Notes: a model not told the origin generated them from the letters alone. A stretch of DNA of 36,977 nt from Candidatus Micrarchaeota archaeon (GCA_038046605.1 JBBSVW010000096.1:1-36977), one strand, 5' to 3'. Shown: positions 596-34,108, numbered from the stretch's first letter. Numbers and translations: made by a program.

Positions 596-1510
596 ATGGT
601 CCGGCATCTTGTTGGTATGGGCGATTTAACGCCTTTTGAGATTTCCAAAATCATCGATTTAGCAATCGAACTAAAGGCGCATCCGGAAAAATACTATTCC
701 AAATTGGATCATAAAAGCCTGGTGATGCTTTTTGAGAAATCTTCAACACGAACTAGGCTTTCATTTGAAATTGGCATGACGCAGCTTGGTGGCCACGCGG
801 TCAATTTCACCGGATCGCAGCTTTCAGCCGGGAAGGAAGACGTCGCAGATACCGCTCGAACAATTTCCGCATACGCGGATATTTTGATGGCAAGGGTATT
901 CAAGCACGAAACGGTGGCGGGACTTGCCAAATTTTCCAAAATTCCAGTCATCAACGCGCTATCCGACCTGGAGCATCCGTGCCAGGCGCTGGCGGATATA
1001 CAAACAATCAAGGAGCTAAAAGGCTGGAAGGATGCGAAAGTTGCATATGTTGGGGACGGGAATAACGTGTGCAATTCACTGATGCTTGCATGTGCGATGG
1101 TGGGAGTGGATTTTGCTGCTGGAACACCGAAAAATTACATGCCGAATGGGGAGTTGATGAAAAAAGCGGAAAAATATGCGGAGAAATCGAAGGCGAAGCT
1201 CACGTTCACCAACTCCGCTGTTGAAGCCGTAAGGGATGCCGATGTTGTTTACACTGATGTTTGGATCTCGATGGGCGAGGAGCATTTGAAGGAGCAGAAG
1301 ATGAAGGAGTTCGGCGGTTTTCAGGTGAATGGGAAATTGATGGCGCTTGCGAGGAAGGATGCGATCTTCATGCACTGCCTTCCGGCAAAGAAGGGATATG
1401 AGGTTACGAAGGAGGTCATCGAGGGGAAGCAATCGGTGGTTTTCCAGCAGGCGGAAAATAGGATGCATGCACAGAAGGCATTGATGTTATTCTTGCTGGG
1501 GAAGGTATGA
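596..1510 (+). CDS. argF: ornithine carbamoyltransferase
   Basis: SSTRTR, HPCQ, GDGNNV, DVWISMG, FMHCLP and QAENR motifs. Confidence 0.96.
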   Translation: MVRHLVGMGDLTPFEISKIIDLAIELKAHPEKYYSKLDHKSLVMLFEKSSTRTRLSFEIGMTQLGGHAVNFTGSQLSAGKEDVADTARTISAYADILMARVFKHETVAGLAKFSKIPVINALSDLEHPCQALADIQTIKELKGWKDAKVAYVGDGNNVCNSLMLACAMVGVDFAAGTPKNYMPNGELMKKAEKYAEKSKAKLTFTNSAVEAVRDADVVYTDVWISMGEEHLKEQKMKEFGGFQVNGKLMALARKDAIFMHCLPAKKGYEVTKEVIEGKQSVVFQQAENRMHAQKALMLFLLGKV

Positions 1511-1540
1511 AGTTTTGATGAACCTTTTGCTAAAAGGTCC

Positions 1541-1582
1541 GCATAGAAGGCGCTGATGATGTTTTTGATGGGAAAATCTTAA
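1541..1582 (+). repeat. diverged duplicate of the argF 3' end
   Basis: Reads A*KALMMFLMGKS* vs argF 1469-1510 AQKALMLFLLGKV*; 29/42 nt identical; hairpin ACCTTTT-GCT-AAAAGGT (1522-1538) lies between. Confidence 0.85.
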
Positions 1583-1598
1583 TCAAAAAGCTTATAAA

Positions 1599-1624
1599 GT
1601 GGGATATCCCACAAATTAGTGGGA
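1599..1624. promoter_or_regulatory. palindromic operator of the abrB-vapC operon
   Basis: Perfect palindrome GTGGGATATCCCAC overlapping TCCCAC-N6-GTGGGA, directly after TATA-like CTTATAAA. Confidence 0.6.
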
Positions 1625-1633
1625 GGTGGGAAA

Positions 1634-1885
1634 ATGTACCTGAATATGGACGGGAAGGGAAGGTTGCAGATGCCGGCGAAATTGAGGAAAAGGCTGGGGC
1701 TGGGAAGGCGAGTGAAGGCCGAGGAGAAAGGGAAAAACCTGATAATCCATACTGGCAGGGAGGAAAATTTCTGGAATAAGTACGCAGGTTTTTTCAAGGG
1801 CAAGGGAAAGCTGGGCCAATCGGATGACGTGGGCAAACTGGCGGAGGAACAATTCTGGAAGGAAAGCAATGATAAGTTCAGGTGA
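1634..1885 (+). CDS. AbrB/MazE/SpoVT-family antitoxin
   Basis: MDGKGRLQMPAKLRKRLGL motif; SD GGAGGTG; upstream of a PIN gene. Confidence 0.85.
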   Translation: MYLNMDGKGRLQMPAKLRKRLGLGRRVKAEEKGKNLIIHTGREENFWNKYAGFFKGKGKLGQSDDVGKLAEEQFWKESNDKFR

Positions 1886-1891
1886 GCCCGC

Positions 1892-2278
1892 ATGGAATAC
1901 GTAGAAACGAGCATCCTATGGGATTGGACTGCCAAGGGGGAATATGCGGATTACCTGTTGCGTTTGGGACTTGATGGCATCGGCTGCACATCGCTTTTCA
2001 CCCTAACTGAAATGCGCATGGCAATGCTTCGGAAAAATCATGGCATCCGTGAAATCGAAGAGCTTATGAATAGGATTATCAATGATTCGGGGCTGATTTT
2101 TATCAACATGACAGAGGAGGATTTTCAAAAATCGATGGAACTATCAAAAAGGTATTCCCTGACTACATTCGATTCAATCCATGCCGCCATTTGCATCAGT
2201 AACGGGTTTGCATTGTCAACATTGGACAAAGATTACGGGAAAATCGCCGGTTTGAAAACGGTTAGGCCGGAAAGATAA
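1892..2278 (+). CDS. vapC: PIN-domain VapC-like toxin
   Basis: YVETS, TLTE, DSIHAA and TLDKDY PIN motifs. Confidence 0.85.
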   Translation: MEYVETSILWDWTAKGEYADYLLRLGLDGIGCTSLFTLTEMRMAMLRKNHGIREIEELMNRIINDSGLIFINMTEEDFQKSMELSKRYSLTTFDSIHAAICISNGFALSTLDKDYGKIAGLKTVRPER

Positions 2279-3097
2279 CTAAATTATTTCCGAATTGCCC
2301 GGAAGCATCTGCATGAGCTGGTCGAAAGCAAGGTCAATCGAGTCAGCTTGAAGTTTGTTCACGAGCGTTTTCGCGAGGTCTTTTTTCTCAATTTGCCCAG
2401 GTTGTACAATAATTTTCCTGATGAACGCGCGGGGAGAGTTAAGGAAATCGTAATTAGCCGGCACAACCGCCAGCCTTTCCACATTGTTGGTGCGTTCAAC
2501 TGCGATCACGATCTTAAGTTCCATGTTCTTGAACCATTTCTTCTCCCCGCGGATCATGAACCCCCCCTTTGGGACGTATTCGCCCTGGGAATATTTTTCC
2601 ACATGGCCCTTGTCGACATAATAGGTGTTTGCAACGTGAAGATTGCCCTTCCAGGCGCTCGAGTAGCATACGGAAAATTGCGCGGTTTCCTTGAGGCTTT
2701 GCTCATTTGCGGATTTCCCATTCTTCAATATCACGGCGGAAGCGCCATGCACATCCGCATGGAAGAACAAATCATTGGGCTCGAGGTATTTTGAGAATAG
2801 GAGGTCGTTTTGCTGCGCGTCCCTGCCGGCAATCGTTAGGAGCATTTCGGATGTGAAGAAATTGTGGAACTTTTGGTACCATTCACGCTGCTCAAGGATG
2901 CGCACCTTTTTCTTGTGCTCCTCCTTCTCTTCCTGGGAGGCGAATTTTTGCTTGTTTTTCACCCGCTCCAGCTCGCGCTTTGTCTTTTCTATTTCAAAGT
3001 CCAGGTTCTCCTTTTTCTTCTTGGCCTCCTTGCCCTTGCGGAAAAGCGCCTGCGCATTCTCATTTGCGCCCTTCGATATGTCCAATTCGATTTTCAT
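2279..3097 (-). CDS. NFACT-R domain protein (C-terminal half of Rqc2/NEMF), 272 aa
   Basis: ELD..ANENA, WYQKF, IAGRDAQQND, FFHADVHGAS, YSSAW and GEYVPKGGFMIRG; start at 3097 supported by TATA-like TATATAAA about 21 nt upstream. Confidence 0.88.
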   Translation of the reverse strand: MKIELDISKGANENAQALFRKGKEAKKKKENLDFEIEKTKRELERVKNKQKFASQEEKEEHKKKVRILEQREWYQKFHNFFTSEMLLTIAGRDAQQNDLLFSKYLEPNDLFFHADVHGASAVILKNGKSANEQSLKETAQFSVCYSSAWKGNLHVANTYYVDKGHVEKYSQGEYVPKGGFMIRGEKKWFKNMELKIVIAVERTNNVERLAVVPANYDFLNSPRAFIRKIIVQPGQIEKKDLAKTLVNKLQADSIDLAFDQLMQMLPGNSEII

Positions 3098-3370
3098 GGA
3101 GGAAATTAGGCGGGAGATTTTATATAGGTGCTTGATTAAAAAACTCGAATGGAAAACGGATGGGAATTTGCAGATAGGGGATGAGAAGTTGTGGATGCAA
3201 AACCCCAATGGAAAGCCGGATCGAACCAATGGGCTCCAAAAGAAAACAAATGGATTTTAGGGGGTAAAACGGGAATGGAAAAGAATCAGATCTGAAAAGA
3301 AAAAAAAGAAAAAAAAGAAGAATGATTTCAATGAAAAAGATTTTCACCACTTATTTCGCGGCTATAAAAC

Positions 3371-3412
3371 CTATTTCCTCTTCTTCTTCTTTGAGGCCTT
3401 CTTCTTGACCAT
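3371..3412 (-). CDS. Lys-rich micro-peptide MVKKKASKKKKRK (13 aa)
   Basis: ATG..TAG with SD GGGTGAG 5 nt upstream; 7 of 8 Lys codons are AAG; T-rich tract downstream. Confidence 0.6.
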   Translation of the reverse strand: MVKKKASKKKKRK

Positions 3413-3632
3413 TAGTTCTCACCCGCAATTAGTAATGCACCCGGGTATATTTAGCTATCGGTTGGAAAAAAAATAAAAATAATGGAAAATAAAATTAAGC
3501 AAAATGGAAAAAATGGTCCAAACCGGCAACCCTCCTCGTAAATATTGCCTATTTCTTTTTTTTAGCATGGTTTAAAAAAGCGCGAAGGGGATAAAGGGTT
3601 TTCGGAGGCATGATTTGTTGGTGCTGGCAAAA

Positions 3633-4340
3633 TTAGCCGATAGAGGAGAAAGGGGATGCCTCATCTAGAACTTCGGACCTGACAATGCCTCCACAATATT
3701 TTTCAACTAATCCATGCAATTCTTTGGTAGCGACATCAATTTCTTCCCTGCTTACTGGCGGAAGACCTTCAATGACCAGGATACAGTTTTTAGTCTCTTC
3801 GGTCAACTTTGTCCTTTCGGCCTCACGCCAATTCCATCTCCGGCAAATTGCGGAAACTCCGTCCTTGTATATTGCCTCCCCATTCTTTGGGGGCCTAGCC
3901 TCCTTATCTCCAAGTAGCAACACGGGCGCCTCGTTTTCAGCCGCGAACGTCAAAAGTATATCGCCCTCGATTTTGTCCAAGTCCTCTCCACCAACTGGAA
4001 GCATATGCTTTAGGGAAATGAAATTATACAGGTCTACGAGCTTATTGATCCGCCGAAGTCCCGAGCCGCTAAGAACAAGCCTAAATAGATTTTCGACTGA
4101 AGATTTGTGCTCTTTTGGCTTTGCGCCAAATGCGGAGTATGCCTTTCTCCAGGCATCGATTTTAGGCTGCTGGCTTAAAATCTCGGAAGTATGTCTTTGC
4201 CTAATTATCCCTTCAAGGTTTTTGGTTTTATCCGAAATCTCCTCAGGAAAGCCCTTATTCGAGATATTTTTCGCCATCACCACGCCTAAATGAAGCCCTG
4301 AAAACTTTTCGAAAATTTCTTGCTCAATAATTAGTTTCAT
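3633..4340 (-). CDS. stand-alone B3/B4 (PheRS-beta editing-like) domain protein
   Basis: AWRKAY..FG, SSVENL, INKLVDLYN.ISL, PVGGEDLD and ICRRWNWRE motifs. Confidence 0.88.
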   Translation of the reverse strand: MKLIIEQEIFEKFSGLHLGVVMAKNISNKGFPEEISDKTKNLEGIIRQRHTSEILSQQPKIDAWRKAYSAFGAKPKEHKSSVENLFRLVLSGSGLRRINKLVDLYNFISLKHMLPVGGEDLDKIEGDILLTFAAENEAPVLLLGDKEARPPKNGEAIYKDGVSAICRRWNWREAERTKLTEETKNCILVIEGLPPVSREEIDVATKELHGLVEKYCGGIVRSEVLDEASPFSSIG

Positions 4341-4366
4341 GAACATCATCCAGGCAATCAAATGTA

Positions 4367-6761: not shown

Positions 6762-6877
6762 TTCATCAACCCCCATAAAAGCCAAATGGCTAAAACCTCA
6801 AATTTCCCACAACAAAAAAATGAAAAAATGCAGCGCATGGAAAAAATAAAAAAAGAAGGGATTTGCCCCCTTTGGAT

Positions 6878-6906: not shown

Positions 6907-6913
6907 AGAAAGA

Positions 6914-11105: not shown

Positions 11106-12107
11106 ATGGGAGTGCTGGAATCCTTGAAGCGGCTAGAAGAAGTAAAGATCCATACAGGCGCAAGAACAACGCTTGGCAAAGTTAGGGATGATGTGCTTGC
11201 AGGCAATTTATTCAAGCTTGGCCCTAAGGAAATTGTGGCTTTGGCTGTACTTGGTGAATTATCAGCCGGCGGCTCACAGCCAAATCTGATACAAGAGAGT
11301 GACAATTGGCAAATTTCGAGGGGATGGGAACTCGCAAAACACGCAGCAAAATTGCATCCAAGGGACTTAACGCCATATATGCAGCCACAATTCCTTGAGG
11401 CGCTTAACCAAGCTACCGAACATCCGAAATTCAATATTGCGATGCATGCCCAAGATTTTGCCCAATTCCTGCGCATAACAAAGACTGAAACATCCCCAAA
11501 GGAACCGGTTGCAAGGGATTTTCCAAGAGAAGCAGTTTTGGCATATCTTGCGCTTCGAAAAGCCCATCTGGACGTATCATTGCCGCATGGCGAACGCCGC
11601 TATACAAACGGGATCCGCGCAATTTGGTCTGCAAAGCACACAAATCTCTGGAACCTCTTCCGCGATCATAGTGAATTTTTTGGCCGAATTGCTGCATTTG
11701 CTGATCTGGTGCCGACCCTTGATTTGAGGAGGCTCCTAGATCATATGCCTCGAATTAAGGTAATCCCCAAGGAGCAGACGGAATTGTTCAAAAAATGGGA
11801 GGCTTGGGCTTCCGTTGTTTATCATCCCGAATTGGCAAAATACCTGGAAATTTACAAGCACACGCCAGGGCATAATTTTATTATCCGGAATGCTCCTGCA
11901 ATATTAAAAAAATTGAACGGAAACGAGGATTTGCTGATTGACGAGAAACGCGCGCTCTATGCATGGGTAATGAAGGCATACGAAGGGGGGGAAGGTAGGG
12001 AAAAAGTGAGGGAAAGATATCTTTTGGAAAATTTCGACCAAGGCAAGCTCGATATAGAGCAGCTAAATGCAATAAGGGTAAGGCTCGACCAGCGCGCTAA
12101 TGCCTAA
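11106..12107 (+). CDS. hypothetical protein
   Basis: 333-aa ORF with ATG start; no recognised motif. Confidence 0.7.
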   Translation: MGVLESLKRLEEVKIHTGARTTLGKVRDDVLAGNLFKLGPKEIVALAVLGELSAGGSQPNLIQESDNWQISRGWELAKHAAKLHPRDLTPYMQPQFLEALNQATEHPKFNIAMHAQDFAQFLRITKTETSPKEPVARDFPREAVLAYLALRKAHLDVSLPHGERRYTNGIRAIWSAKHTNLWNLFRDHSEFFGRIAAFADLVPTLDLRRLLDHMPRIKVIPKEQTELFKKWEAWASVVYHPELAKYLEIYKHTPGHNFIIRNAPAILKKLNGNEDLLIDEKRALYAWVMKAYEGGEGREKVRERYLLENFDQGKLDIEQLNAIRVRLDQRANA

Positions 12108-12112
12108 AGTGC
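12097..12112 (-). repeat. duplicate of the purH 3' end
   Basis: g cac ttt agg cat tag (HFRH*) vs purH g cat ttt agg cac tag; 14/16 nt identical, both changes synonymous. Confidence 0.65.
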
Positions 12113-12127: not shown

Positions 12128-13684
12128 CTAGTGCCTAAAATGCCTCCTTCCGGTTAGTACCATCGCAATACCGTGCTCGTTTGCAGCATCAATAACCTCC
12201 TGGTCGCGGATTGAGCCGCCGGGCTGTATGATGGCGGAAATGCCGGCTTTTGCAGCGAAATCAATGGTGTCGCGGAAGGGGAAGAAGGCTTCAGAAGCCA
12301 TTACTGCGCCCTTTACATCGAATTTGGCGCGCGCAGCCTTTTCTATGCAGATCTGGCAAGAATCAACGCGGCTTTGCTGGCCTGCGCCAACTGCAAGCAA
12401 TTTCTCATCGGTTGCAAACACAACGGAATTGCTCTTGATGTGGCCCATGAATTTCCAGGCGAACTCCAAAGCGGAAAGCTCTTTTTCCGTTGGCTTCCTT
12501 TTGGTTGCGATTTTGAATGATTTCATGTCGAATTCGTTTTCAATATAATCTGGCGTTTGCAAAAGCGCGCCTCCGGTAATTGATATGCGGCGCTTTTCGG
12601 CGTAAATGTTTCCGGAGAGGAATTTGTCCGCCTTGATCACTCGCAAATTCTTCTTGGTTTGGAAAACAGCTAGCGCCTCCGCATCAAAATCCGGCGCAAC
12701 AACTATTTCCATGAAATTCTTTATTATTGCCTGCGCGGTTTTGGCGGTTACTTTGCGGTTGAAAACCACTATCCCCCCGTATGCTGAAAGAGAGTCCGCA
12801 GAAAATGCCATTTGGAACGCTTCCAATTGATCCTTGCTTTTCCCCGCTCCAGTGGGATTTGTATGCTTGAAAATAATCGAAATATTCTCCTTTTCGGATT
12901 TGAATTGGTAGATCAGCTCGAGCGCCGCCTGGATGTCAAGGATGTTGTTGTATGAAAGCTCCTTTCCGTTGAGTTTTTCCAGGTGCTCATAAGTGAGGGG
13001 CGCATTATAGAATTTGTATAGTGCCGCTTTTTGGTGCGGGTTTTCGCCGTACCTCAAATCCTGGATTTTGTGGAGCTGAATCGAGGAGATATTTGGGAAT
13101 TCGCCCTCTCCTGAAAGCTGGTTGAAATAATTTGCGATGGAAATATCGTAAGCAGCTACCAAATTGAATGCATCCTTTGCAAGGGATGTGCGCATTTGCT
13201 GGGAAACATCACCCATTTTTTTCATTTCCGCAATTACCCCTTCATATTGATTCGGAGAGGTAACTACAATTACGTCCTCAAAATTCTTTGAGGCGGACCT
13301 TACTAATGCGGGGCCGCCTATGTCGATGTTTTCGATTATTTCTTCAGCGTTCTTGCTTTTTTTAAGTGTTTCATCAAATGGGTAGAAGTTGACGCAGACC
13401 ATGTCAATTGCATGGGAGGAGGCGATTTTGGCATGGGAGGGGTCCTTTCGCCGGTAAAGAATGCCACCGTGCACCTTGGGATGGAGGGTTTTGACCCTCC
13501 CATCAAGCATTTCGGGCGAACCGGTGAAATCAGCAACATCCACAACGGGAATTTTGGCATCTTTTAGCAATTTGGCGGTGTTTCCGGATGCTAAAAGCTC
13601 GTAGTTTGATTTATGGAGGAAGCTGGCAAAGGGCAATAGCCCATCCTTGTTTGAGACGCTAAGAAGCGCGCGCTTTTGAGCCAT
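12128..13684 (-). CDS. purH: bifunctional AICAR transformylase/IMP cyclohydrolase
   Basis: RALLSVS, GRVKTLHP, IDIGG, LRYGENPHQ, KHTNP and RHFRH motifs. Confidence 0.96.
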   Translation of the reverse strand: MAQKRALLSVSNKDGLLPFASFLHKSNYELLASGNTAKLLKDAKIPVVDVADFTGSPEMLDGRVKTLHPKVHGGILYRRKDPSHAKIASSHAIDMVCVNFYPFDETLKKSKNAEEIIENIDIGGPALVRSASKNFEDVIVVTSPNQYEGVIAEMKKMGDVSQQMRTSLAKDAFNLVAAYDISIANYFNQLSGEGEFPNISSIQLHKIQDLRYGENPHQKAALYKFYNAPLTYEHLEKLNGKELSYNNILDIQAALELIYQFKSEKENISIIFKHTNPTGAGKSKDQLEAFQMAFSADSLSAYGGIVVFNRKVTAKTAQAIIKNFMEIVVAPDFDAEALAVFQTKKNLRVIKADKFLSGNIYAEKRRISITGGALLQTPDYIENEFDMKSFKIATKRKPTEKELSALEFAWKFMGHIKSNSVVFATDEKLLAVGAGQQSRVDSCQICIEKAARAKFDVKGAVMASEAFFPFRDTIDFAAKAGISAIIQPGGSIRDQEVIDAANEHGIAMVLTGRRHFRH

Positions 13685-16100: not shown

Positions 16101-16141
16101 TTGAAAAGTGATGGTCTAAAACCTCCTCTTTATGGGATTTT

Positions 16142-16208
16142 CTTCCCTCGTAAGGCTGGACGATTCCCAATATCGGTACCGATATGAAAAACGGTTTTTA
16201 CGAGGAAG
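16142..16208. other. long hairpin with a perfect 16-bp palindrome inside
   Basis: CTTCCCTCGTAA / TTACGAGGAAG stem enclosing ATATCGGTACCGATAT (16170-16185). Confidence 0.5.
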
Positions 16209-16308
16209 GGGCGTTATCCTTTCCTATTTTATTGCTTTTTTTCCTTTGATTTGCCTCGGAAAAAGAAACCTTTAAATATCCATCTATTGTATGTACTGAT
16301 GCTTTCAG

Positions 16309-16355
16309 ACACAATATATAGTACCAAGCGAGGCAAAATCCACAATATATAGCAC
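16309..16355. promoter_or_regulatory. tandem NrdR boxes
   Basis: ACACAATATATAGTAC (16309-24) and CCACAATATATAGCAC (16340-55), 31 bp apart, match acaCwAtATaTwGtg; downstream of TATA TTTAAATA (16271). Confidence 0.9.
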
Positions 16356-16393
16356 GCCTTACGCCATTTTTTGTCTGGAAAGAGGTTGGTTTC

Positions 16394-16846
16394 ATGAGGT
16401 GCCCTTACTGCGCGCATATGGAAACGAAGGTTTTGGATTCACGCGATGCGGAGGACCTTGCCGTAACCAGGCGCAGGCGGGAGTGCGAGAAATGCGAAAA
16501 GCGCTTCACCACCTATGAACGGGTTGAATTCATCGACCTGGTTGTCCGCAAGAAGGATGGCAAAACCGAGCCATTCGACAGGGCGAAAATCGAAAGCGGC
16601 GTCCTCAAGGCATGCGAAAAGCGCCCCGTGAGCAGGGAAAAGCTCGAGGAAACAGTGGATGAAATTGAGCGCGACATCCGCAAGAAGGAGGGCACCGAAA
16701 TCACATCAACCGAAATTGGGGAAATGGTCATTGCAAAGCTCAAGAAGCTTGACAAGGTCGCCTATATAAGGTTCGCAAGCGTTTACCGGGAATTCGCCGA
16801 TTTGGATGAATTCGAAGTTGAGGTAAAGAAGCTGTTGAAGAAGTGA
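16394..16846 (+). CDS. nrdR: transcriptional repressor NrdR
   Basis: MRCPYC..VLDSR..RRRREC..RFTTYE, ATP cone, and VAYIRFASVYREF. Confidence 0.97.
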   Translation: MRCPYCAHMETKVLDSRDAEDLAVTRRRRECEKCEKRFTTYERVEFIDLVVRKKDGKTEPFDRAKIESGVLKACEKRPVSREKLEETVDEIERDIRKKEGTEITSTEIGEMVIAKLKKLDKVAYIRFASVYREFADLDEFEVEVKKLLKK

Positions 16847-16860
16847 TGTCGAAATAAGCA

Positions 16861-16970
16861 GTCGGATCAACCTAGAGGGGGTGACGATCCGACATCGGGA
16901 GGGGGAAAACACCTCTCGATGAGCAGATTTAAGTCTGCGAAAAAAGTAGGGGGATGCGTCCCCATAGGTT
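16861..16970 (+). ncRNA. candidate structured RNA or MITE-like four-hairpin insert between nrdR and nrdJ
   Basis: Stems at 16861-93, 16894-920, 16923-38 and 16950-63. Confidence 0.4.
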
Positions 16971-16974
16971 TGTC

Positions 16975-17016
16975 AATGAGTTCGAAGTTGAGGTAAAGAA
17001 ATTGCTGAAAAAATGA
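16975..17016 (+). repeat. diverged duplicate of the nrdR 3' end
   Basis: NEFEVEVKKLLKK* vs 16805-16846 DEFEVEVKKLLKK*; 35/42 nt identical; 6 of 7 changes synonymous. Confidence 0.92.
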
Positions 17017-17174
17017 GTGGATTTTAAAGTAAAAATGGCAAAATGGTCGCACATATGATGAATGTTTTTAGGGGAAAAAACACACATTTTTTATTTTTCA
17101 AAAGTGGTTTGGATGGAATTTTTTATTTTTTTGAATGGGATGGACTCGCAAGCTTCGATACGAGGTGGTAAGGG

Positions 17175-20000
17175 ATGGAGGAGCGTAAAACAGCATATTT
17201 CAATGTGCCAGCAGGTGGGGAGGCCATGACAAGCAACGGAAACACACACATAGGGAAAATCAGGAAGCGCGACGGCAGGATTGTCGAATTCAAGAAGGGC
17301 ATGATAGTTAGCGCCCTTTGGAAGGCTGCAAAGGCCGTTGGGGGAAAGGATAAGGCGCTTGCATCCGCGCTTGCCGATACCGTTGTCGACCAGATGGAAA
17401 AACTATTCGGGGAAGGCGCTACGCCAGGCGTTGAGGATGTGCAGGATATTGTTGAAAAAGTCCTAATCGAAGGCGGTTATGCAAAAACCGCCAAGGCATA
17501 TATCATTTACAGGCAGCAGCGCGCCGAACTTAGGGAGGAAAAAAAGCGCGTGCTTGAGAAGGAGGAAATCGACGAGGTCGACAAGCGCTTTGATTTGAAC
17601 GCCCTAAAAGTGCTAAAGGCGCGCTACCTGCGCAAAAGCGAGGATGGAAAGCTCATAGAAACGCCAAAGCAGCTATTCACAAGGATTGCGGTGCATTCGA
17701 CGCTTCCGAATATCATTTATGACGAAAGGGTCTTTGACCTAAAAGCCGGGCAAAAGGTTGCGCCGCACGAGGAATTCGATACCGCAACGCACGAATTCAA
17801 ATATTCAATTGGGAAATATCTTTTAAACCGCTACCATCTGGAAGCCCTAAAGCGGATGTTTGATCGGATGAACAAACTCCATCAGATGAGGATGCCATTT
17901 AGCAAATTCATGGAACTTTTCGCAACCGGCACATTTGCAGTGCACGAAAAGGAAATGGATGGGAATTACGATGTGATGGTTTCACGCAAGTTCATGCCAA
18001 ACACGCCAGCAATTGCCAACTTTGGGAATTCCCTGGGGATGGGAAGCGCTTGCTTTGTAATTGGTGTTGAAGATTCAATTGAAAGCATCATGGAGGGGCT
18101 CAAGAACACCGCAATTGTATTCAAATCAGGTGGAGGAATGGGCTACAACTTCTCGCAGCTTCGGCCGGAGGGGGATTTTGTTTCCTCCACATCCGGAATA
18201 GCAAGCGGGCCAATAAGCTTCATGCGCCTATTCGACACCATGACAGAAGTAATAAAGCAAGGCGGCATCCGCAGGGGCGCCAATATGGGAATACTTAACA
18301 GCAACCATCCCGACATAGAAAAATTTGTCAAGGCAAAGGAGGGGAACAGGGCGCTTCGCAACTTCAACATTTCCGTTCTTCTGATGCCCGATTTCTGGCA
18401 ATATTACGATAAAAACGAGCCGTATCCACTGGTCAACCCAAGGAGCGGCGAAACCGTGCGGACAATCAATCCAAGACGGCTCTTTGACATGATCGTCTAT
18501 CAGGCTTGGGAATCGGCGGAGCCGGGGGTCATATTCTATGATTCGGTAAACAGGTACAATCCCTTCCTGGATCACCTGGGGCCAATTGTCACAACAAACC
18601 CATGCGGCGAAGTGCTCCTTTACCCCTACGAATCATGCAACCTGGGCTCGATCAACGTTTGGCACTTTGCAAAGGAGGATGAGTTGGGGAAAACCTACTT
18701 CGATTGGGAAGGGCTAAAGGAAACAATCCTGCAAACTACGGAGCTTTTGGATAATGTGATCGATGTGAGCAAGCACCCATTGCAGCAATTCGAGGACATG
18801 ACCCTTGCAACAAGGAAAATCGGGCTTGGCCTCATGGGCTTTGGGGATTTGCTTTATGAAATGCGAATCGCATACAACTCCGATGAGGGCAGGGGTTTTG
18901 CCGAAAAGCTCATGGAATTCATCAACTACTGGAGCAAGGTTGGATCCATTGAACTTGCCAAGAAAAGGGGAAGCCTGCCATATTACAACAAGAGCTTTTA
19001 TCCGGAAGGGAAATTACCGCTCTCTGGGGCTTATGCTGCAAACAAGGAATTGGATTGGGACAAAATTGCGCAGGATGTGAAGAAATACGGCGTAAGAAAC
19101 GGCTACACAACCGTGATTGCCCCAACCGGCAGCATTTCCATGATTGCAGGCTGCAGCTCGGGAATTGAACCGGTCTACGCGCTCGTATTCGAAAAGAATG
19201 TGAAAGTGGGAAGCTTCTATTATGTGGATGGCGCCTTTGAAAAGGCCATGAAGGATGAGGGGCTCTACGATGAAAAATTGATGGCGGAAATCAACGATAG
19301 CGGCGGAAACATCCAAAGCGTCTCTTACATTCCCCCATCCCTGAAAAAGGTTTTCGTAACGGCAATGGATATCAGCCCCGAGGATCACATAAGGATGCTT
19401 GCGGCATTCCAGAATTGGACGGATTCATCCATCAGTAAAACCAACAACTTCCCTGCGGATGCCACAGTTGATGACATGCGCGAAAGCTACCTTCTCGCAT
19501 ACAGGCTTGGATGCAAGGATGTCACGGTCTTTAGGGATACATCAATCAAGGACCAGGTGCTGGTTGCCCCGCCTAAAAAAGTAGTGGCAAGCACGACAGT
19601 ACAGGCAACACATTCAGCAGGAAAAGAAACATCAATGGGTTCTGGCATAGGCGCAGGCAGGGAGGCAACAATGGGCGCAAATATGGCTAAGGGCGCAAAT
19701 GGGCATAGTTCAGCTAACGGAAATTCCAATATCCCCCAAGGTTCGACCCATTCGCAAAAACAGACAATGACAATCACAGCCGATTCGCTCCTCGAAAAGC
19801 ATGAGGCGGCCTACAAGGTCATGTCCGATGGCGGCTCTAGCCTGCCCCAGGCGGGCCCGCAAATGCATACGGGCTTTTCCGAAGTGAATTTTGGCGACAA
19901 GGGCATAACGCAATGCCCCGCCTGCACATCGCAGCAGCTTGAAAAGAAGGAGGGCTGCCTGACATGCGCGGATTGCGGATGGGGATACTGCTCGTCTTAA
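17175..20000 (+). CDS. nrdJ: adenosylcobalamin-dependent (class II) ribonucleotide reductase with ATP cone
   Basis: KRDGR ATP cone, PNTP, SACFV, RRGANM, TNPCGE..CNLGS, APTGSIS and a C-terminal Cys-rich tail; no class I YY motif and no nrdB nearby. Confidence 0.92.
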   Translation: MEERKTAYFNVPAGGEAMTSNGNTHIGKIRKRDGRIVEFKKGMIVSALWKAAKAVGGKDKALASALADTVVDQMEKLFGEGATPGVEDVQDIVEKVLIEGGYAKTAKAYIIYRQQRAELREEKKRVLEKEEIDEVDKRFDLNALKVLKARYLRKSEDGKLIETPKQLFTRIAVHSTLPNIIYDERVFDLKAGQKVAPHEEFDTATHEFKYSIGKYLLNRYHLEALKRMFDRMNKLHQMRMPFSKFMELFATGTFAVHEKEMDGNYDVMVSRKFMPNTPAIANFGNSLGMGSACFVIGVEDSIESIMEGLKNTAIVFKSGGGMGYNFSQLRPEGDFVSSTSGIASGPISFMRLFDTMTEVIKQGGIRRGANMGILNSNHPDIEKFVKAKEGNRALRNFNISVLLMPDFWQYYDKNEPYPLVNPRSGETVRTINPRRLFDMIVYQAWESAEPGVIFYDSVNRYNPFLDHLGPIVTTNPCGEVLLYPYESCNLGSINVWHFAKEDELGKTYFDWEGLKETILQTTELLDNVIDVSKHPLQQFEDMTLATRKIGLGLMGFGDLLYEMRIAYNSDEGRGFAEKLMEFINYWSKVGSIELAKKRGSLPYYNKSFYPEGKLPLSGAYAANKELDWDKIAQDVKKYGVRNGYTTVIAPTGSISMIAGCSSGIEPVYALVFEKNVKVGSFYYVDGAFEKAMKDEGLYDEKLMAEINDSGGNIQSVSYIPPSLKKVFVTAMDISPEDHIRMLAAFQNWTDSSISKTNNFPADATVDDMRESYLLAYRLGCKDVTVFRDTSIKDQVLVAPPKKVVASTTVQATHSAGKETSMGSGIGAGREATMGANMAKGANGHSSANGNSNIPQGSTHSQKQTMTITADSLLEKHEAAYKVMSDGGSSLPQAGPQMHTGFSEVNFGDKGITQCPACTSQQLEKKEGCLTCADCGWGYCSS

Positions 20001-22868: not shown

Positions 22869-23417
22869 ATGGCTAACGGACTTAAATTCACCCTCGGGCT
22901 CGCATTCGTTTCACTTATCCGGCTAATCCCAATGCCCCTTCCCAACATGGAGCCAATCATGGCAACAATGCTGCCATTTGCCAGGAAATACGGAAAGGTT
23001 GCCGGCTTTTTGTTTTCATTCCTTGCACTGCTATCATTTGATTTCATTTCGGGAAGGGTTGGGATGTGGACGGTTTACACTGGAATTGCCTACGGAATCA
23101 TTGGATTTGCTGCCGGAAAATACTTCTCAAGCAATAATAGGCAAAAAATGAAATATTACCTCGGATTTGGGCTCGTGGGCACCATATTTTATGATGCAAT
23201 CACAGCGTTCATTTTCGGGATTCAATTTGGTCAGCCACTTGCAATGACAATTGCCGGGCAGATACCTTTCACGATTTACCATCTTATTGGAACTGCCGCA
23301 TTTATCCTAGTGCTTACCCCAGTAGTGAATAGGATTATAGTGGAAAATCCGATGCTCGAATTAGGGGGAGTTGGCGCAAAAAGGCCCTTTGCGGCAAAGC
23401 ATCAGAAGAGGGATTGA
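22869..23417 (+). CDS. ECF S-component-like membrane protein (CbrT/BtuM-like, putative cobalamin)
   Basis: 182 aa, about 6 TM; RLIPMPLPNMEPIMA N-terminal motif; PF..H near the C-terminus. Confidence 0.65.
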   Translation: MANGLKFTLGLAFVSLIRLIPMPLPNMEPIMATMLPFARKYGKVAGFLFSFLALLSFDFISGRVGMWTVYTGIAYGIIGFAAGKYFSSNNRQKMKYYLGFGLVGTIFYDAITAFIFGIQFGQPLAMTIAGQIPFTIYHLIGTAAFILVLTPVVNRIIVENPMLELGGVGAKRPFAAKHQKRD

Positions 23418-23421
23418 GGGC

Positions 23422-23488
23422 ATTTTTCCCTAACTATTTTTCAGCACTAAAAAAGGAATTGAATGAATTTTTCCCTAATTATTTTTCA
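23422..23488. repeat. 22-bp direct repeat duplicating the NYN gene stop region
   Basis: 23422-43 vs 23467-88, 21/22 identical; the mismatch is TAG vs TAA stop on the minus strand. Confidence 0.8.
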
Positions 23489-27244: not shown

Positions 27245-27256
27245 TGAGAGATTTGG

Positions 27257-27478: not shown

Positions 27479-27490
27479 GAGGCGATAGAT

Positions 27491-27832
27491 ATGAAATTTG
27501 AGGGAAAGGCGTGCCCAATTTGCGGGAAGGGAAAAATGGAGGCAATAAGGCACGAAGCCGATCCAGGCATTTACGTCGATGCCTACAAGTGCAATAAATG
27601 CGGCGAGATCGCATATGCTGAGCGCATAATAAAGATTCTAGAAGCAATAGGAAATCGCGGCAAAGAGGAGCGCCACATGGTCAAAGTGGGTTCATCCCTG
27701 GCGGTGACCATTCCGGCTGCTTTCGTGAAGAAACTGGGGCTTAGGCCAAAGGATCCGGTCCATATCTCGATGGATGAAAATTCGCTCCTCATTACAAGGG
27801 GTCAAAGAATGGGCGCGCTTCGCCAAATATAG
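27491..27832 (+). CDS. Zn-ribbon (YgiT/MqsA-like) plus AbrB-domain antitoxin
   Basis: CPICG..CNKCGE; KVGSSLAVTIP..LGL. Confidence 0.8.
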   Translation: MKFEGKACPICGKGKMEAIRHEADPGIYVDAYKCNKCGEIAYAERIIKILEAIGNRGKEERHMVKVGSSLAVTIPAAFVKKLGLRPKDPVHISMDENSLLITRGQRMGALRQI

Positions 27833-27999
27833 CAACAAATTGCATACTTATTTAAACCTCTTTCACCTCAAATAGTTGCTAATTCTGCTGGTTTTATCCG
27901 GCGATTTTTGGGGGCATTTAGGAATATTTTTGCCTACGCCCCTCCATATATTTATTTCAACCAAAAGGGGTATAATTTTCAACTAAAAGGCAGGTAAAT

Positions 28000-29535: not shown

Positions 29536-29604
29536 AAGAATAGGGATAATCTGGAGAATAGGGAATAAAACCAATTCTGTCCACCAAATTTATCCAGCGC
29601 CATG

Positions 29605-29880
29605 CTAGGGCTTGTAGCGCCTTACTAGTTCGTAAAGCAAATTGATTTCACTTTGCTTGATCCTCCCTTTTTCAAGCATGGATGATCGAAGTGCGCTAAG
29701 GAATGCCGAATGCTCGGGCTCCATGCTGGGCGGCGTGCTCGTTTGCGACTGGGATTCGTGCAATTTCTCCACAGCGCCCCATGCATTCCTGTACCAAAAA
29801 TGATTCCGGGGGTAAATATTATCCCCGCCACCCTTCTTGAAATCCCCGATTTTCCGCCTTCTTTTTTGAGGTTCCGCCAT
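29605..29880 (-). CDS. hypothetical protein
   Basis: SD GGTGA before ATG; 91 aa. Confidence 0.5.
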   Translation of the reverse strand: MAEPQKRRRKIGDFKKGGGDNIYPRNHFWYRNAWGAVEKLHESQSQTSTPPSMEPEHSAFLSALRSSMLEKGRIKQSEINLLYELVRRYKP

Positions 29881-29909
29881 TTCACCACCCAAGGATGTTT
29901 ATCGAAAAA

Positions 29910-30413
29910 TTATTTCTTTTTCGTTTTTATGTCGATTACGTCCGCAACCGTGAAGCTGTCCTTCCCCTTCCCTTGGAAATCGGAAAGCATTTCTTCCCTA
30001 AGCTTATCCACCTTTCCGGGGATGTTTTCTTCGAGCAATTTTATGGTGAGGAATTTTTCGATCTTTTGCGCAACCTTATGCTCGGGCTTTAGGTGCTCGG
30101 CTTCAAGGCGCTCGATCACATTTTCCGTGATGAAAAGCGTGTTTGCAAGCTGGTGCCTTGTGAGGCCCATTTTTTCCCGTGCGTGGGCAATAATTTTACC
30201 ATATCCATCAACAACCGAATACTCATGCGAAATGGCAGTTGAAATGGTTTGGGATGTCTTGGCACTCGTATTAGAAATTGGCCGGCTCGGAATGGGCGAA
30301 CTTACGGGCTTTCCATACTTTACGCAAACGCCGCAAACCTGAACGCGCGCGCCTTCAACAATTGCCTCCCCCATGGCCGGGTTTCCGCAAATATAGCAAT
30401 CTGGAGTTTTCAT
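29910..30413 (-). CDS. archaeal MBF1 (Zn ribbon plus HTH)
   Basis: CYICG..VEGA..VCGVC..YG; AREKMGLT..LA..IEKFL.IKL. Confidence 0.88.
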   Translation of the reverse strand: MKTPDCYICGNPAMGEAIVEGARVQVCGVCVKYGKPVSSPIPSRPISNTSAKTSQTISTAISHEYSVVDGYGKIIAHAREKMGLTRHQLANTLFITENVIERLEAEHLKPEHKVAQKIEKFLTIKLLEENIPGKVDKLREEMLSDFQGKGKDSFTVADVIDIKTKKK

Positions 30414-30497
30414 TTGTGTTTGCACCACATTCGTTTGTTCCTGCCTATTACCTAACTAGTTAAAAGGCTTGAATTTTTAATTTGCTTGGGTTTTCAA

Positions 30498-31514
30498 ATG
30501 GGAGTTGCAATTGGGGATATCATTACGCATGAGAAGCTTACCTTTGATCAGATCCATGGAAAGATCGCAATCGATGCCTACAACGCGCTCTACCAATTCC
30601 TCTCCATAATAAGGCAGCCGGATGGCACCCCGCTTATGGATTCCCAGGGGAGGGTAACTTCGCATCTTTCGGGGCTTTTTTACCGCACATGCAACATGCT
30701 TGAGAAAGGCTTGCAGCCAATTTATGTTTTCGATGGCCCGCCTTCTGAACTTAAGAGGCGCACATTGGATGAACGCAAAGCGCGAAAACAACTAGCTGCG
30801 GAAGAATTTGTTGCCGCCAAGGAAGCCGGAAAGGAGGCGGAGATGAAAATTTTTGCCCAGCAAACAACCAAGTTAACCAAAGAGATGGCGGGGGAGGCAA
30901 CGCACCTTCTTACGCTTCTTGGGGTTCCGGTAATTCAGGCAAAAAGCGAAGGGGAGGCGCAATGCTCCTACATGTGCAAGGAAGGGCTGGTGGATGCCAC
31001 GGGTTCGCAGGATTATGACGCGCTTTTGTTTGGTACTCCGGTGCTGCTTAAAAATTTGACAATTGCCGGAAGGCGAAAACTTCCAAGGAAAAATATTTTT
31101 GTGGAAGTGGTACCAGAAAGGATAGAGCTTGGACCCAACCTCCAAACACTGGGAATCACTCAGCAAAAGCTCATTTGGATTGGAATTCTTGCCGGCACCG
31201 ATTTCAATAAAGGCATTTACGGGATCGGCGCAAAAAAAGCCCTGAAATTGGTTAAGGAGTTTGACACATTTGAAGGGATCACGCAAAAGCTAGGAAAGGA
31301 AGTTGATTACAAACCGGTGGAAGAGCTATTCATGAATCCGGAGGTAAACAAAGTTACGGAATCCGACATCCAATTTCAGGAGCCAAACCGCGATGGGCTA
31401 TTGAATTACATGCTTGAGCGCAATTTCACTCCGGAGCGCGTGCAGGCGGCGCTTGGACGCGCATTCAAGGAGCCCTTTGGGACGAAGCAAAGCTCGCTAA
31501 ACAAATGGTTCTAG
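30498..31514 (+). CDS. fen: flap endonuclease 1
   Basis: MGV.., DAYNALYQFLSIIRQPDG, EGEAQ, SQDYD, GTDFN and PIP box QSSLNKWF. Confidence 0.97.
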   Translation: MGVAIGDIITHEKLTFDQIHGKIAIDAYNALYQFLSIIRQPDGTPLMDSQGRVTSHLSGLFYRTCNMLEKGLQPIYVFDGPPSELKRRTLDERKARKQLAAEEFVAAKEAGKEAEMKIFAQQTTKLTKEMAGEATHLLTLLGVPVIQAKSEGEAQCSYMCKEGLVDATGSQDYDALLFGTPVLLKNLTIAGRRKLPRKNIFVEVVPERIELGPNLQTLGITQQKLIWIGILAGTDFNKGIYGIGAKKALKLVKEFDTFEGITQKLGKEVDYKPVEELFMNPEVNKVTESDIQFQEPNRDGLLNYMLERNFTPERVQAALGRAFKEPFGTKQSSLNKWF

Positions 31515-31680
31515 ATGAAATAAGGATTAAACTTTTCGGATTAAGATTTCAAAACGCGTTTCACTGATTGTCGAAGTTCCAAGGGAAACAAAATCATTAA
31601 TAAACGTTTAGCAGCCTATTAGTTTTGGATATTTTTTTTGTTGTTCGAGTGCAAAAGCATTTTACCCTAGGGTGATTGCC

Positions 31681-31806
31681 ATGCAAGTGATGAGAATGGA
31701 AACAAAGCAAGTGCAAATCAAGAAAAAGAAGCCCGAACTCCCGGTCCTTGAGGATGACACGGATAACCTCTGGGAGGAGGAGAAGGCAGAAAAGGAAGAA
31801 GAGTAG
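31681..31806 (+). CDS. small basic/acidic protein (36-41 aa)
   Basis: MQVMRMETKQVQIKKKKPELPVLEDDTDNLWEEEKAEKEEE*; SD GGTGA; fills an otherwise empty gap. Confidence 0.5.
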   Translation: MQVMRMETKQVQIKKKKPELPVLEDDTDNLWEEEKAEKEEE

Positions 31807-31960
31807 GATTTTGCAAATTGCTTTACTTATTTTACCCCAAAATACCAACCTGACGCCAAATTTTATTTTATAACTAGCCGCCTATTTGCAAAAATGGGAA
31901 AGATTGAAATCAGCAGCAATAATAGCGTAAAACCCGCCCCACCATCCAGAATTTTTTTTG

Positions 31961-32350
31961 CTAATGTATCCGGACTATTCCCCTGAACCTATCAAAATCC
32001 GAATCGTACGATAGGATTTTTGAAATGCCATTTTCCTTCATCACAAGGACGCTTAGGGAATCGCAAAGGCTTAGGCCTGCGTATTTTTTCAATATTTCAA
32101 GCCCCAGCTCGACTTTTTGCTCATCGGCATAAACGATTTTCATGCGCGAATTATCCAGAATGCGTCGCCCAACGCCATAGGCAAATTCGCTACCGCAGTT
32201 ATTCATAAGCCAATCAATGGTTTCTTCCAAGATATGGTCGGTAATTACGCACGTTTCAGATATACCGCTCCAAAGTTCAACCGAACGGGCGTTCCTCTCC
32301 TCTTTATTTGTGAAAAGTGAGATGAGGAAAGAGGAATCGACCATCAACAT
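31961..32350 (-). CDS. vapC: PIN-domain VapC-like toxin
   Basis: VDSS, ILEE, SLCDSLS and SYDSDFD motifs. Confidence 0.88.
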   Translation of the reverse strand: MLMVDSSFLISLFTNKEERNARSVELWSGISETCVITDHILEETIDWLMNNCGSEFAYGVGRRILDNSRMKIVYADEQKVELGLEILKKYAGLSLCDSLSVLVMKENGISKILSYDSDFDRFRGIVRIH

Positions 32351-32362
32351 AACAACCAACCG

Positions 32363-32650
32363 CTAATCAAAGCCCATTTTCTCAAGCTCCTTTTGGGCGT
32401 TGAATTTTTTCAGGCCAACTCCATTTGCAATTCCAACCAAGTCCAACAAATCGTATTTTTTGCCGCTCTTCCTGCTTGGGACCTTTGGCAGATCCAGCTC
32501 GAGTGCAAAATCCATGGCGGAATCGATTGCCTCGATATCCGTCACATCCTTTCCGTTGCGTTCCATGAGCCTCGCCTTATACTTTACAATTTTGGGCGCT
32601 GTGCGCCTTGCTATCTTCTTTGTGATGTATGCCTCCACGCCTACCACCAA
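32363..32650 (-). CDS. putative antitoxin
   Basis: Small ORF directly upstream of vapC; LLDLVGI VapB-like tail. Confidence 0.6.
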   Translation of the reverse strand: MVVGVEAYITKKIARRTAPKIVKYKARLMERNGKDVTDIEAIDSAMDFALELDLPKVPSRKSGKKYDLLDLVGIANGVGLKKFNAQKELEKMGFD

Positions 32651-32763
32651 TTACACTTATTACACCAAAGGATAAAAAGCTTGCGGGGGGTGGCTTCCGG
32701 TGGGCAATAAGAAAAAAATTAGGCAAAGGTTAAATCCCCAAAACGGATTTTCTCGCTTTTCCT

Positions 32764-32802
32764 TCAATAAATAACGAAGTTTATGCAAAGCGCATTGATT
32801 TG
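32764..32802 (-). repeat. diverged duplicate of the glyA 3' end
   Basis: QINALCINFVIY* vs glyA 32879-32917 [12 protein letters not shown]; 26/39 nt identical; five synonymous codon changes. Confidence 0.85.
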
Positions 32803-32878
32803 CCCCATTAATTTGCCCACCTAATTAGGAGGGTGGGCGGCGACACGTGGGAGGGAACCTTAGGTTCCCTTTGGGGTG
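32803..32878. other. multi-hairpin insert between glyA and its duplicated tail
   Basis: CCCCA/TGGGG outer stem enclosing GCCCACC/GGTGGGC and AGGGAACC-TTA-GGTTCCCT. Confidence 0.55.
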
Positions 32879-34108
32879 TCAATAAATCACAAAATTCTTG
32901 CACAATCCCCTAATTTCCTCCCTTACCTTCAATTTGGTTGGCGCATCCGTCCGATTCGTGAGGGTTTTGTGAATTAATCTGGCTATCTCCTTCATTTCGG
33001 ATTCCTTCATTCCCCTGCTTGTGATTGCCGGCGTGCCGAGCCGGATTCCGGATGGATCAAGTGGCGCCCTCTTATCGAATGGGATCATGTTCTTGTTTGT
33101 GTAAATGCCAACCTCATCAAGGACTGCTTCAGCTTCCTTGCCGGTGATTCCCTTCTCGAAAACATCAATGAGCATCAGGTGGTTATCCGTTCCGTTGGAA
33201 ACGAGCCGGTAGCCATAGCCCATGAGCTCTTCCGCAAGCACTTTGGCATTCTTGACAATTTGCCTTGCGTATTCCTTGAATTCCGGCTGGAGCGCCTCCT
33301 TGAAGGCGACTGCTTTTGCCGCATTCACGTGATCATGCGGCCCCCCCTGCAAACCGGGGAAAACCGCCTTGTCGATTTGCTTAGCAAATTGCTCCTTGCA
33401 CATGATCATGGCGCCCCTTGGGCCCCTTAGGGTTTTATGGGTGGTCGTGGAAACCACATCGAAATAGGGAACGGGGTTTTCGTGTACACCAGCTGCGCAT
33501 AATCCGGCGATATGGGCAATATCCGCAAAGGTGTAAGCTCCGATTTCATCTGCAATTTCCTTGAATTTCCTGAAATCGAGGGTTCTGGGGTAGGCGGAAA
33601 AACCTGCCAGGATCATTTTGGGCTTTTCTGCGATTGCAAGGCGCCTAACCTCATCATAGTCAATCAAACCAGTTTCGGGATCTACCCCATAAGGGATGAT
33701 TTTGTAGAACCTTCCGGAGAAGTTGAGTGGGTGCCCGTGGGTGAGATGACCGCCGTGCGCAAGGTTCATTCCAAGCACTTTGTCGCCAATTTCCAATAGG
33801 GCATAATAAACGGCGAAATTCGCCGGCGAACCCGAATAGGGCTGCACGTTCACGTGCTGCGCGTTGAAGAGCAATTTTGCCCTTGCAACCGCAATATCCT
33901 CCATTTGGTCAATGTATTCGTTCCCGCCATAGTAGCGCTTGTGGGGGACGCCTTCGGAGTACTTGTTTGTCATTATGGAGCCTAATGCTTCCAGCACTGC
34001 TTTTGAAACATAATTCTCGGACGGGATCATCTCCACCCCTTCCATCTGGCGCTTTTTCTCGTTTTCGATTGTTGCCGCAATTTCCGGATCGAATTTTTCC
34101 AAGTACAT
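32879..34108 (-). CDS. glyA: serine hydroxymethyltransferase
   Basis: [34 protein letters not shown] and SGIRLGTPA motifs. Confidence 0.97.

Follow-up and report, generated by a model that had tools for sequence, protein, structure and literature searches.

A family-restricted hairpin repeat of Micrarchaeota beside gene ends with recoded duplicates

The end of a gene can be found twice around inserted DNA. Integrative elements use an attachment (att) site that overlaps the 3' end of a gene or tRNA, they encode an integrase, carry kilobases of cargo and rely on one fixed att sequence. Mobile endonuclease open reading frames (ORFs) of fungal mitochondria were reportedly treated by Paquin et al. 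in 1994, and insertion with long target duplication is said to go back to Nobusato et al. in 2000. These systems are the background for a 36,977-nt stretch of archaeal DNA (GCA_038046605.1 JBBSVW010000096.1:1-36977, hereafter the window), in which five genes are accompanied by a second copy of their own 3' end. The window is the whole of contig C96 of a 1.64-Mb, 106-contig Candidatus Micrarchaeota genome (G000, the genome under study, of a tiny groundwater archaeon; metagenome-type assembly, 90.7% complete). The name E is given here to a structured DNA repeat that stands between copies of gene tails; C-numbers denote contigs, and G001, G002, G003, G005 and G006 are among the relatives compared.

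Judged by likeness, the closest analogue is the mobile endonuclease ORFs of fungal mitochondria. The relevant part of the source describes a foreign C-terminus carried by such ORFs in Allomyces atp6 and in Glomus atp6, atp9, cox2 and nad3, the Glomus atp6 tails having 63.5% nucleotide versus 91% amino-acid identity (Beaudet et al. 2013, PMC3630166). According to the same pages, these elements, like E, lie close to the 3' end of conserved genes; the inserted tail completes the gene and the native tail remains downstream, the tails diverge mainly at synonymous sites and the same genes are hit in different species. The fungal elements are described there as ∼1-kb LAGLIDADG or GIY-YIG homing endonucleases with one target each, whereas E inserts are non-coding hairpins of 50-180 nt, too short for an endonuclease ORF and with no linked nuclease gene. 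Moreover, E hits ∼25 different genes in one genome, and many of its repeat pairs are identical.

A second likeness concerns bacterial restriction-modification genes. In the sections of the source drawn on here, their insertions are flanked by direct repeats of variable length (>30 bp), present once in the empty allele, the insert contains neither a transposase nor an integrase, some repeats overlap gene 3' ends, the mechanism is given as unknown and no archaeal case survived the screen (Furuta, Abe and Kobayashi 2010, PMC2853133). E shares the variable-length repeats and the empty alleles in relatives, but its repeats span 17-88 nt, part of them <30 bp. As described in those sections, the bacterial inserts measure several kb, whereas E is a high-copy archaeal hairpin whose repeats carry a coding signature.

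Repetitive extragenic palindromic (REP) elements are, in the portion of the source used, short GC-rich palindromes with a GTAG tag, present as dozens of extragenic copies near ORF ends, clustering and sometimes donating a stop codon (Di Nocera et al. 2013, PMC3733652). The word ‘duplication’ has 0 occurrences in the main text of that paper. Like REP/REPIN sequences, E is a GC-rich imperfect palindrome with GTAG before the inner stem and 59-65 copies, just 3/65 of them inside an ORF; unlike them, it has an archaeal host and the RAYT (Y1) partner does not co-occur with it. As in att-site integrative elements, the insert lies between direct repeats of a gene end and leaves the gene intact, but the repeat differs from one E locus to the next and a recombinase is lacking. 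Three other classes were considered and rejected. A miniature inverted-repeat transposable element, with terminal inverted repeats, a short target duplication of constant size and an autonomous insertion sequence as its parent, does not fit repeats of variable length, a variable 5' junction combined with a fixed 3' junction and the lack of any parent element found. IS200/IS605-derived palindromic elements (PATE) lack target duplication, while flanking repeats are seen at 58/158 E copies, and E has no consistent Y1/TnpB partner. For a diversity-generating retroelement, RVT_1 gives no match, and the differences are of all kinds and mostly synonymous (by inspection, not a formal adenine test). 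Literature searches returned no description of such elements in archaea.

Element E and its flanking repeats

The frequency of duplicated tails was estimated from 1368 ORFs of at least 100 aa with 300 nt downstream, the last 42 nt of each being compared ungapped with those 300 nt; controls paired tails with the downstream DNA of other genes or used the reverse complement. A recurrence of at least 25/42 is found at 27/1368 ORFs, versus 1.8 expected from shuffled pairing and 2 on the reverse complement. At 28/42 or more, 18 ORFs stand against 0.2 and 0 in the two controls. The nrdR, argF and glyA genes of the window are among the matches. This enrichment bears out the sequence-only reading, which had proposed a frequent genome-wide process on the basis of the five cases in the window. 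In a subset of 457 long ORFs, the threshold of 25 is reached 11 times by the tail versus downstream DNA, once by the tail versus the upstream part of its own gene and three times by mid-gene versus downstream DNA. The corresponding figures for gene heads and tails at 28/42 or more are 1/754 and 15/754 windows, but head duplications are underestimated by this control, the likely reason being that ORF starts were guesses. A same-genus genome with E yields 6/379 ORFs versus 0.8 expected; a 400-kb control stretch from a genome of another family of the order, where E was not found, yields 1/306 versus 0.6. As a separate observation, a genome of another family, in which E was not detected, has one recoded tail duplicate (G016:C1:241213-242184 and 75 nt downstream; 31/42, differences mostly synonymous) with a spacer that is not E, and its tail peptide resembles that of a G000 gene (C3:15733-16632), itself at 25/42 in the scan. 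In annotation, E gives rise to spurious ‘gene fragments’, and gene callers may go wrong at ∼2% of the gene ends of G000.

A metagenome-type assembly in 106 contigs invites the suspicion that tails of co-assembled strains were stitched in series. This explanation is scarcely credible. One contig made by another assembler, likely from the source run, spans 16120-17800 with zero differences, and a 178-nt contig of another study spans 32788-32965 (glyA tail, element and second copy), again with zero differences. Since the window layouts recur identically in these contigs, they are not the artefact of one assembly. Furthermore, the same architecture is present in the separate assemblies of relatives, and the second copy always begins at the same base of the element.

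The spacers of the 17 best cases have a common constituent, as 14 of them hold E, a variant of E or a longer composite ending in the same module. The 52-nt E consensus (alignment of 22 copies) comprises an A/T-rich 5' end, which frequently provides a stop codon, and a conserved G-rich arm. Its hairpin is made of a 5-bp outer stem (GACAC/GTGTC), a 3x3 internal loop, symmetric by eye, and a GC-rich inner stem of 7-8 bp preceded by GTAG; longer composites add further hairpins. The fold is conserved, with 97.9% of cells paired, compensatory changes at 5/13 pairs and a covariation score of 0.335, above 500/500 shuffles. G000 holds 65 copies by nhmmer and 59 by the covariance model. E is confined to one Micrarchaeota family: the model matches 10/10 other genomes of that family, with 5-60 matches each, and 1/50 genomes, weakly, from ten other families of the order. 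A 23-nt E motif is found in 35 stretches among 185,579 species genomes, with titles naming only Candidatus Micrarchaeota, Norongarragalinales or ‘archaeon’. The motif has 0 matches in viral contigs, so that a virus or plasmid carrier was rejected, and Rfam 15 has 0 matches in the window at the gathering score. A 51-nt variant element is identical at two G000 loci (C42:2721-3995 and C29:117-602), where the flanking repeats are 93% and 75% alike.

The relation between E and the duplicated segments was analysed for 158 E copies with enough flank (65 from G000 and 93 from loci of relatives), a flanking repeat requiring a score of at least 36 and a downstream copy starting -3 to +8 nt from the last base of E. 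A direct repeat with its second copy abutting the 3' end of E brackets 58/158 copies, compared with 2/156 for mismatched flanks. These repeats have identities of 74-100% (12/58 pairs are 100% identical), and 50/58 alignments are ungapped. The 3' junction is fixed, while 0 to >100 further bases separate the upstream copy from the conserved 5' end of E. In tail cases the upstream copy mostly ends near the stop codon, from ∼24 nt beyond to 14 nt short of it, with an outlier 55 nt beyond, and this holds even where the gene is followed by 23-384 nt of intergenic DNA. When it ends inside the gene, E provides the last codon or the stop. Because the spare copy starts exactly at the 3' end of E, the gene remains complete. 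Mobile DNA is supposed to find little space in small compact genomes; E would enter by copying the gene end on which it lands, and nothing is broken.

Both in G000 and in relatives the duplicated segments include gene tails, gene heads on the opposite strand and tRNA 5' parts, at variance with the earlier idea of a system specific to gene tails; ORF-based classing of these segments is ambiguous owing to spurious ORFs. E has either orientation relative to the gene (it is inverted at glyA, for example). A weak target preference is visible, the first base of the duplicated segment being G in 16/22 cases and the junction lying between codons in 13/23, a phase bias that can be a by-product of the G preference. 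The spacing between copies follows no multiple-of-3 rule, and the differences along the repeat show no polarity (mean relative position 0.53).

Coding signature of the two copies

The two copies of a tail differ in the way that working genes do. In the 17 best G000 pairs (219 codons), the differences are distributed 25/11/70 over codon positions 1/2/3; of the altered codons 64 are synonymous and 25 non-synonymous, while random single changes in these tails would be synonymous in 24% of cases. In 18 ungapped E-based tail pairs from G000 and relatives (248 codons), the distribution is 10/5/57 and 53 synonymous codons face 8 non-synonymous ones, with a synonymous bias in every identity class. A drift model, in which copy 1 accepts synonymous changes only and copy 2 is free (∼39% synonymous, as estimated here from the 24% random figure), is rejected (P about 1e-14 and 3e-10). 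The stop codon of copy 2 is identical in 7 cases, switched to another stop in 8 and not a stop in 2, in one of which E supplies a new stop (P about 2e-5); counted over the stops that changed, 8/9 became another stop. Synonymous differences and stop-to-stop switches together indicate that both copies evolved as working gene ends, as had been claimed from the sequence alone against neutral decay. Differences so nearly exclusively synonymous or stop-to-stop imply, in turn, that the spare copy was recently a working end in another genome or allele, or was refreshed from such alleles by recombination.

At C18 the copies share 47 identical bases and then diverge as orthologues do, both in sequence and in ending length, and both styles of ending occur in relatives. 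Behind the C18 orthologue in G002 (locus L269, G002:C60), a small zinc-ribbon gene has E and a 66-nt second tail, with 11 synonymous and 2 conservative differences and a stop switch by eye. One gene shared with G005 has four tail copies that are 74-83% alike in every pairing, all coding-like. At C76:9891, 1 synonymous versus 7 non-synonymous codons mark a visibly decayed second copy. In G000, four E copies follow each other behind a 774-aa gene with three stacked coding-like tail copies (C73:31386-31827); this stack may be a record of events that followed one another at a single locus.

An E copy can match copies at other loci with 96-100% identity and yet lie between repeats that agree at no more than 75-88%. 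The use of E-to-E identity as a clock proving that the copies were born different was given up as not decisive, E copies being able to homogenise or replace each other. At one orthologous site, E of G000 is 96% identical to other G000 copies, closer than, by eye, to its G005 orthologue.

In the main rival explanation, E would be inserted plainly, by a transposition-like reaction with staggered cuts 17-88 nt apart, the copies would be born identical, and copy 2 would be kept coding-like by a function in place, for example by being translated after removal or bypass of copy 1 and E, or by being exposed when E is lost through recombination between the repeats. The identical repeats fit a duplication made in place, and the smooth series of identities from 100% down to 74%, the preponderance of ungapped alignments, the E copies that G000 and G005 have in common at two genes, in identical or almost identical positions, and the four coding-like tails of one gene all speak for this account. 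It is nevertheless unlikely, and it offers no way in which copy 2 would be translated. A stop codon closes copy 1, E in phase with its 3' end has stop codons, and the spacing of the copies ignores the reading frame. Direct repeats would not give the exon pairing needed for archaeal bulge-helix-bulge splicing, in which a 4-bp helix separates two 3-nt bulges at the splice sites, and some second copies are decayed (the premature stop at argF and the C76:9891 pair).

Sites in relatives and the origin of the second copy

Orthologous sites in same-genus genomes are in part empty and in part occupied by E. G001, G002 and G005 lack E at the C34 gene, which has one tail there; in G003 the gene has an E that belongs to a different subfamily and does not share the left boundary. 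The C55:19984 gene is without E in 6/6 relatives, all of which end the protein as copy 2 does; copy 2 keeps the ancestral ending. At nrdR, G002 carries a separate E, flanked by a perfect ∼60-nt repeat that extends 18 nt beyond the stop. The C55:24155 gene has E at the same site in G005, where the C86:17174 gene has a composite E with its left boundary 4 nt away. G003 has E at the C73 gene with the same left boundary and a 41/42 repeat, compared with three stacked tails in G000. The C23 gene has E and a repeat also in G002. So has the C79 gene, a putative member of an RNA-polymerase operon, for which G006 gives the same picture by eye, so that three different boundaries are seen; boundaries likewise differ between species at nrdR, C34 and C23. 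Altogether, E with a repeat recurs in 8 of ∼55 orthologue comparisons, whereas ∼1.1 would be expected at 2% per gene (P about 3e-5; n=59), indicating that some gene ends are hit again and again. Behind the C53 orthologue of G005 (locus L361, G005:C27), a variant element lies downstream without a detectable tail duplicate, at the site of E and a repeat in G000.

Two explanations that dispense with a mobile element meet this evidence. The sequence-only reading had supposed that the allele of a relative replaced the 3' part of each gene by one-sided homology-facilitated recombination, bringing its own downstream DNA and stranding the old tail. The coding signature of both copies and the C18 endings, which differ as those of orthologues do, agree with such a process. 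However, the spacers, far from being the downstream DNA of a donor, belong to one conserved, structured, family-restricted repeat (14/17 loci), and the second copy starts at its fixed 3' junction, which already contradicts this process as a complete account. In addition, most of the 59-65 E copies lack a flanking repeat, identical repeats lie at sites empty in all 6 relatives, and heads and tRNA ends are duplicated too. Hence, recombination of this kind without a mobile element is improbable; what survives of the earlier proposal is the involvement of two working alleles, and what has to be replaced is the cause, here a mobile hairpin family that makes up the spacers.

Hairpins stall replication forks, and local slippage or template switching at pre-existing hairpins could make repeats as by-products of stalled forks, with E itself immobile. 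Duplications free of any element do exist (the 16-nt purH repeat and the 45-nt NYN/ECF-S tandem). Yet the empty sites of relatives show neither hairpin nor repeat, E copies at unrelated loci are 96-100% identical, and slippage yields identical copies, which leaves the synonymous divergence unexplained. As the origin of the E-type duplications, slippage is very improbable.

Collectively, the data are probably best explained by a lineage-restricted mobile hairpin element that causes a long target duplication, combined with exchange or repair between diverged alleles. E would reach gene boundaries, where the adjoining segment (tail, head or tRNA end) is duplicated, by one of two routes. In the first, the target duplication, long and of variable extent, is made as E enters. 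In the second, the DNA breaks at the 3' foot of the hairpin, and another copy of the gene, E-less or E-bearing, serves as the repair template; synthesis would then continue beyond the insertion point before the ends are joined, and a fixed 3' junction, repeats of variable length and a boundary at the gene end would all follow. The template or a later recombination partner would often be a diverged allele, so that the spare copy is a recent working tail. Repeated rounds, in which E is lost through the repeats and enters again, would keep the spare copy coding-like and would explain the sites shared with G005 and the C73 stack. Spare ends with the marks of working code suggest that diverged genomes often exchange DNA, or serve each other for repair, in organisms that cannot yet be grown alone; if exchange is indeed at work, the repeats are a built-in record of recombination.

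It is tempting to go one step further and to propose a homing-like system of ultrasmall archaea, in which the recoded gene end and the hairpin move as a cassette between diverged genomes into the same gene and displace the resident end, without an element-encoded nuclease, the hairpin being broken and the break mended from a second allele. Such a system is possible, though doubtful. If it exists, E is a non-coding selfish element spreading through host recombination, and the stacked tails record DNA exchange between related cells.

Several observations weigh against the combination of a mobile hairpin with allele exchange. No donor allele was found among the sampled species, and a metagenome search for close nrdR relatives gave only proteins at 93% and 88%, not close enough to point to a donor. 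Within one genome the two copies have lineage-specific residues in common; they therefore separated later than the lineage did from the nearest sampled species, and any donor has to be closer than every species sampled. The sites shared by G000 and G005 at two loci suggest old insertions whose copy 2 has stayed coding-like in place, for which a simple import of alleles does not suffice without repeated renewal. Head-type pairs show a weaker bias (8 synonymous versus 8 non-synonymous codons, with uncertain frames). High E identity next to diverged repeats fits copies born different but equally gene conversion among E copies. The contigs of the other assembler and of the other study contain no E-less allele and no joint skipping E, an absence that says little because contigs drop rare variants. 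Finally, E is not accompanied by any transposase, integrase, reverse transcriptase or guided nuclease.

The enzymes looked for can be listed briefly. The Y1 transposase (PF01797, Y1_Tnp) occurs in 4/10 other genomes of the family and is missing from G002, which has 60 E matches. A RAYT/IS200 link was rejected for this lack of co-occurrence, and because the hairpins of the transposase itself differ from E by eye. A TnpB-type guided nuclease, with copy 2 as its guide, was likewise discarded, the TnpB-like domain being absent from G000 and present in 2/10 family genomes. For reverse transcriptase, RVT_1 has no match in the 90.7%-complete G000. The single IS200/IS605-type Y1 transposase gene of G000 (C9:24297-24650) is flanked by GC hairpins, and an E copy lies 1.1 kb from it, beside an apparent tRNA gene.

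The five duplications of the window

All five tail pairs proposed from the sequence alone exist, and the gene names are backed by Pfam: OTCase (argF-like), AICARFT/IMPCHase (purH), NrdR, NYN and SHMT (glyA). They are of three kinds (Table 1). The nrdR and glyA cases are of the E type, argF has another small repeated hairpin, and purH and NYN are short duplications free of any element.

Table 1. Features of the window that belong to, or adjoin, the duplicated gene ends
Feature	Position	Strand	Basis or remark
argF-like ornithine/aspartate carbamoyltransferase gene	596..1510	+	ORF; Pfam OTCace_N + OTCace
argF tail copy 1, within gene	1469..1510	+	29/42 identical to 1541-1582
argF spacer, 30 nt, small hairpin; separate repeat, not E	1511..1540	+	predicted fold; second copy at C78:2197
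argF tail copy 2, non-coding, premature stop	1541..1582	+	
Toxin-antitoxin pair, VapB-like (MraZ/AbrB fold) + PIN domain; outside the repeat, not part of the feature	1619..2278	+	Pfam
purH tail copy 2, 16 nt	12097..12112	-	15-nt spacer without hairpin element
purH tail copy 1, 16 nt	12128..12143	-	14/16 to 12097-12112
nrdR tail copy 1, within gene	16805..16846	+	35/42 to copy 2
nrdR spacer, 128 nt, composite multi-hairpin repeat of E kind	16847..16974	+	fold -50.2 kcal/mol
nrdR tail copy 2, non-coding	16975..17016	+	keeps N, the state of relatives
45-nt tandem duplication at convergent ECF-S/NYN genes, no element	23398..23487	.	copies 23398-23442 and 23443-23487, 80%
glyA tail copy 2, non-coding	32764..32802	-	
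Extra small hairpin between E and glyA copy 2	32803..32838	.	sequence
Canonical E, inverted relative to glyA, 3' end overlapping the glyA stop codon	32824..32880	+	42.9 bits, E-value 8e-10; nhmmer
glyA tail copy 1, within gene	32879..32917	-	26/39 to copy 2; 28/42 in tail scan

In the nrdR composite, the 3' module ends immediately before copy 2. Positions 16874-16975 match C9:50934-51038 at 85%, and further places in G001, G003 and G005. The C9 copy is bracketed by a perfect 24-nt repeat, which from its sequence can be read as a tRNA 5' part. Of the 7 bases that differ between the two nrdR tails, 6 are silent and 1 replaces D by N; in the aligned part that was scored, 6 codons differ synonymously and 0 non-synonymously. 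The glyA locus contains the sole canonical E of the window; its extra hairpin has no other copy in the genome at up to 6 substitutions. The glyA tails differ at 5 synonymous and 5 non-synonymous codons (read by eye from the alignment), and the argF tails at 4 and 3. The view that differences within the window are mostly synonymous is therefore right for nrdR and only half true for argF, whose copy 2 carries a premature stop. The 30-nt hairpin repeat of argF has its C78:2197 copy within 5 substitutions (28/30 by eye).

The purH pair fails the 42-nt scan. A separate 16-mer test (at least 14/16 within 100 nt) is passed by 5/1401 genes versus 0.0 expected. At NYN, the 21/22 identity noted earlier is real; it is in fact part of a 45-nt tandem shared with the end of the convergent ECF-S gene. 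The tandem includes just 9 nt from NYN together with the final 20 nt of ECF-S and gives each gene a spare tail. The purH and NYN/ECF-S duplications may be scars of lost elements or the result of plain slippage.

Toxin-antitoxin operons had been reported to follow the argF and glyA duplications. The pairs are real according to Pfam, but they lie outside the repeats; as there is no third tail copy beyond either the argF or the glyA pair, a role as cargo was rejected. The two pairs adjoin these repeats at 1619-2278 and 31961-32650. Their PIN domains are encoded at 1892-2278 and 31961-32359, with an MraZ/AbrB-like partner at 1619-1885 in the first pair and the presumed partner of the second at 32363-32650.

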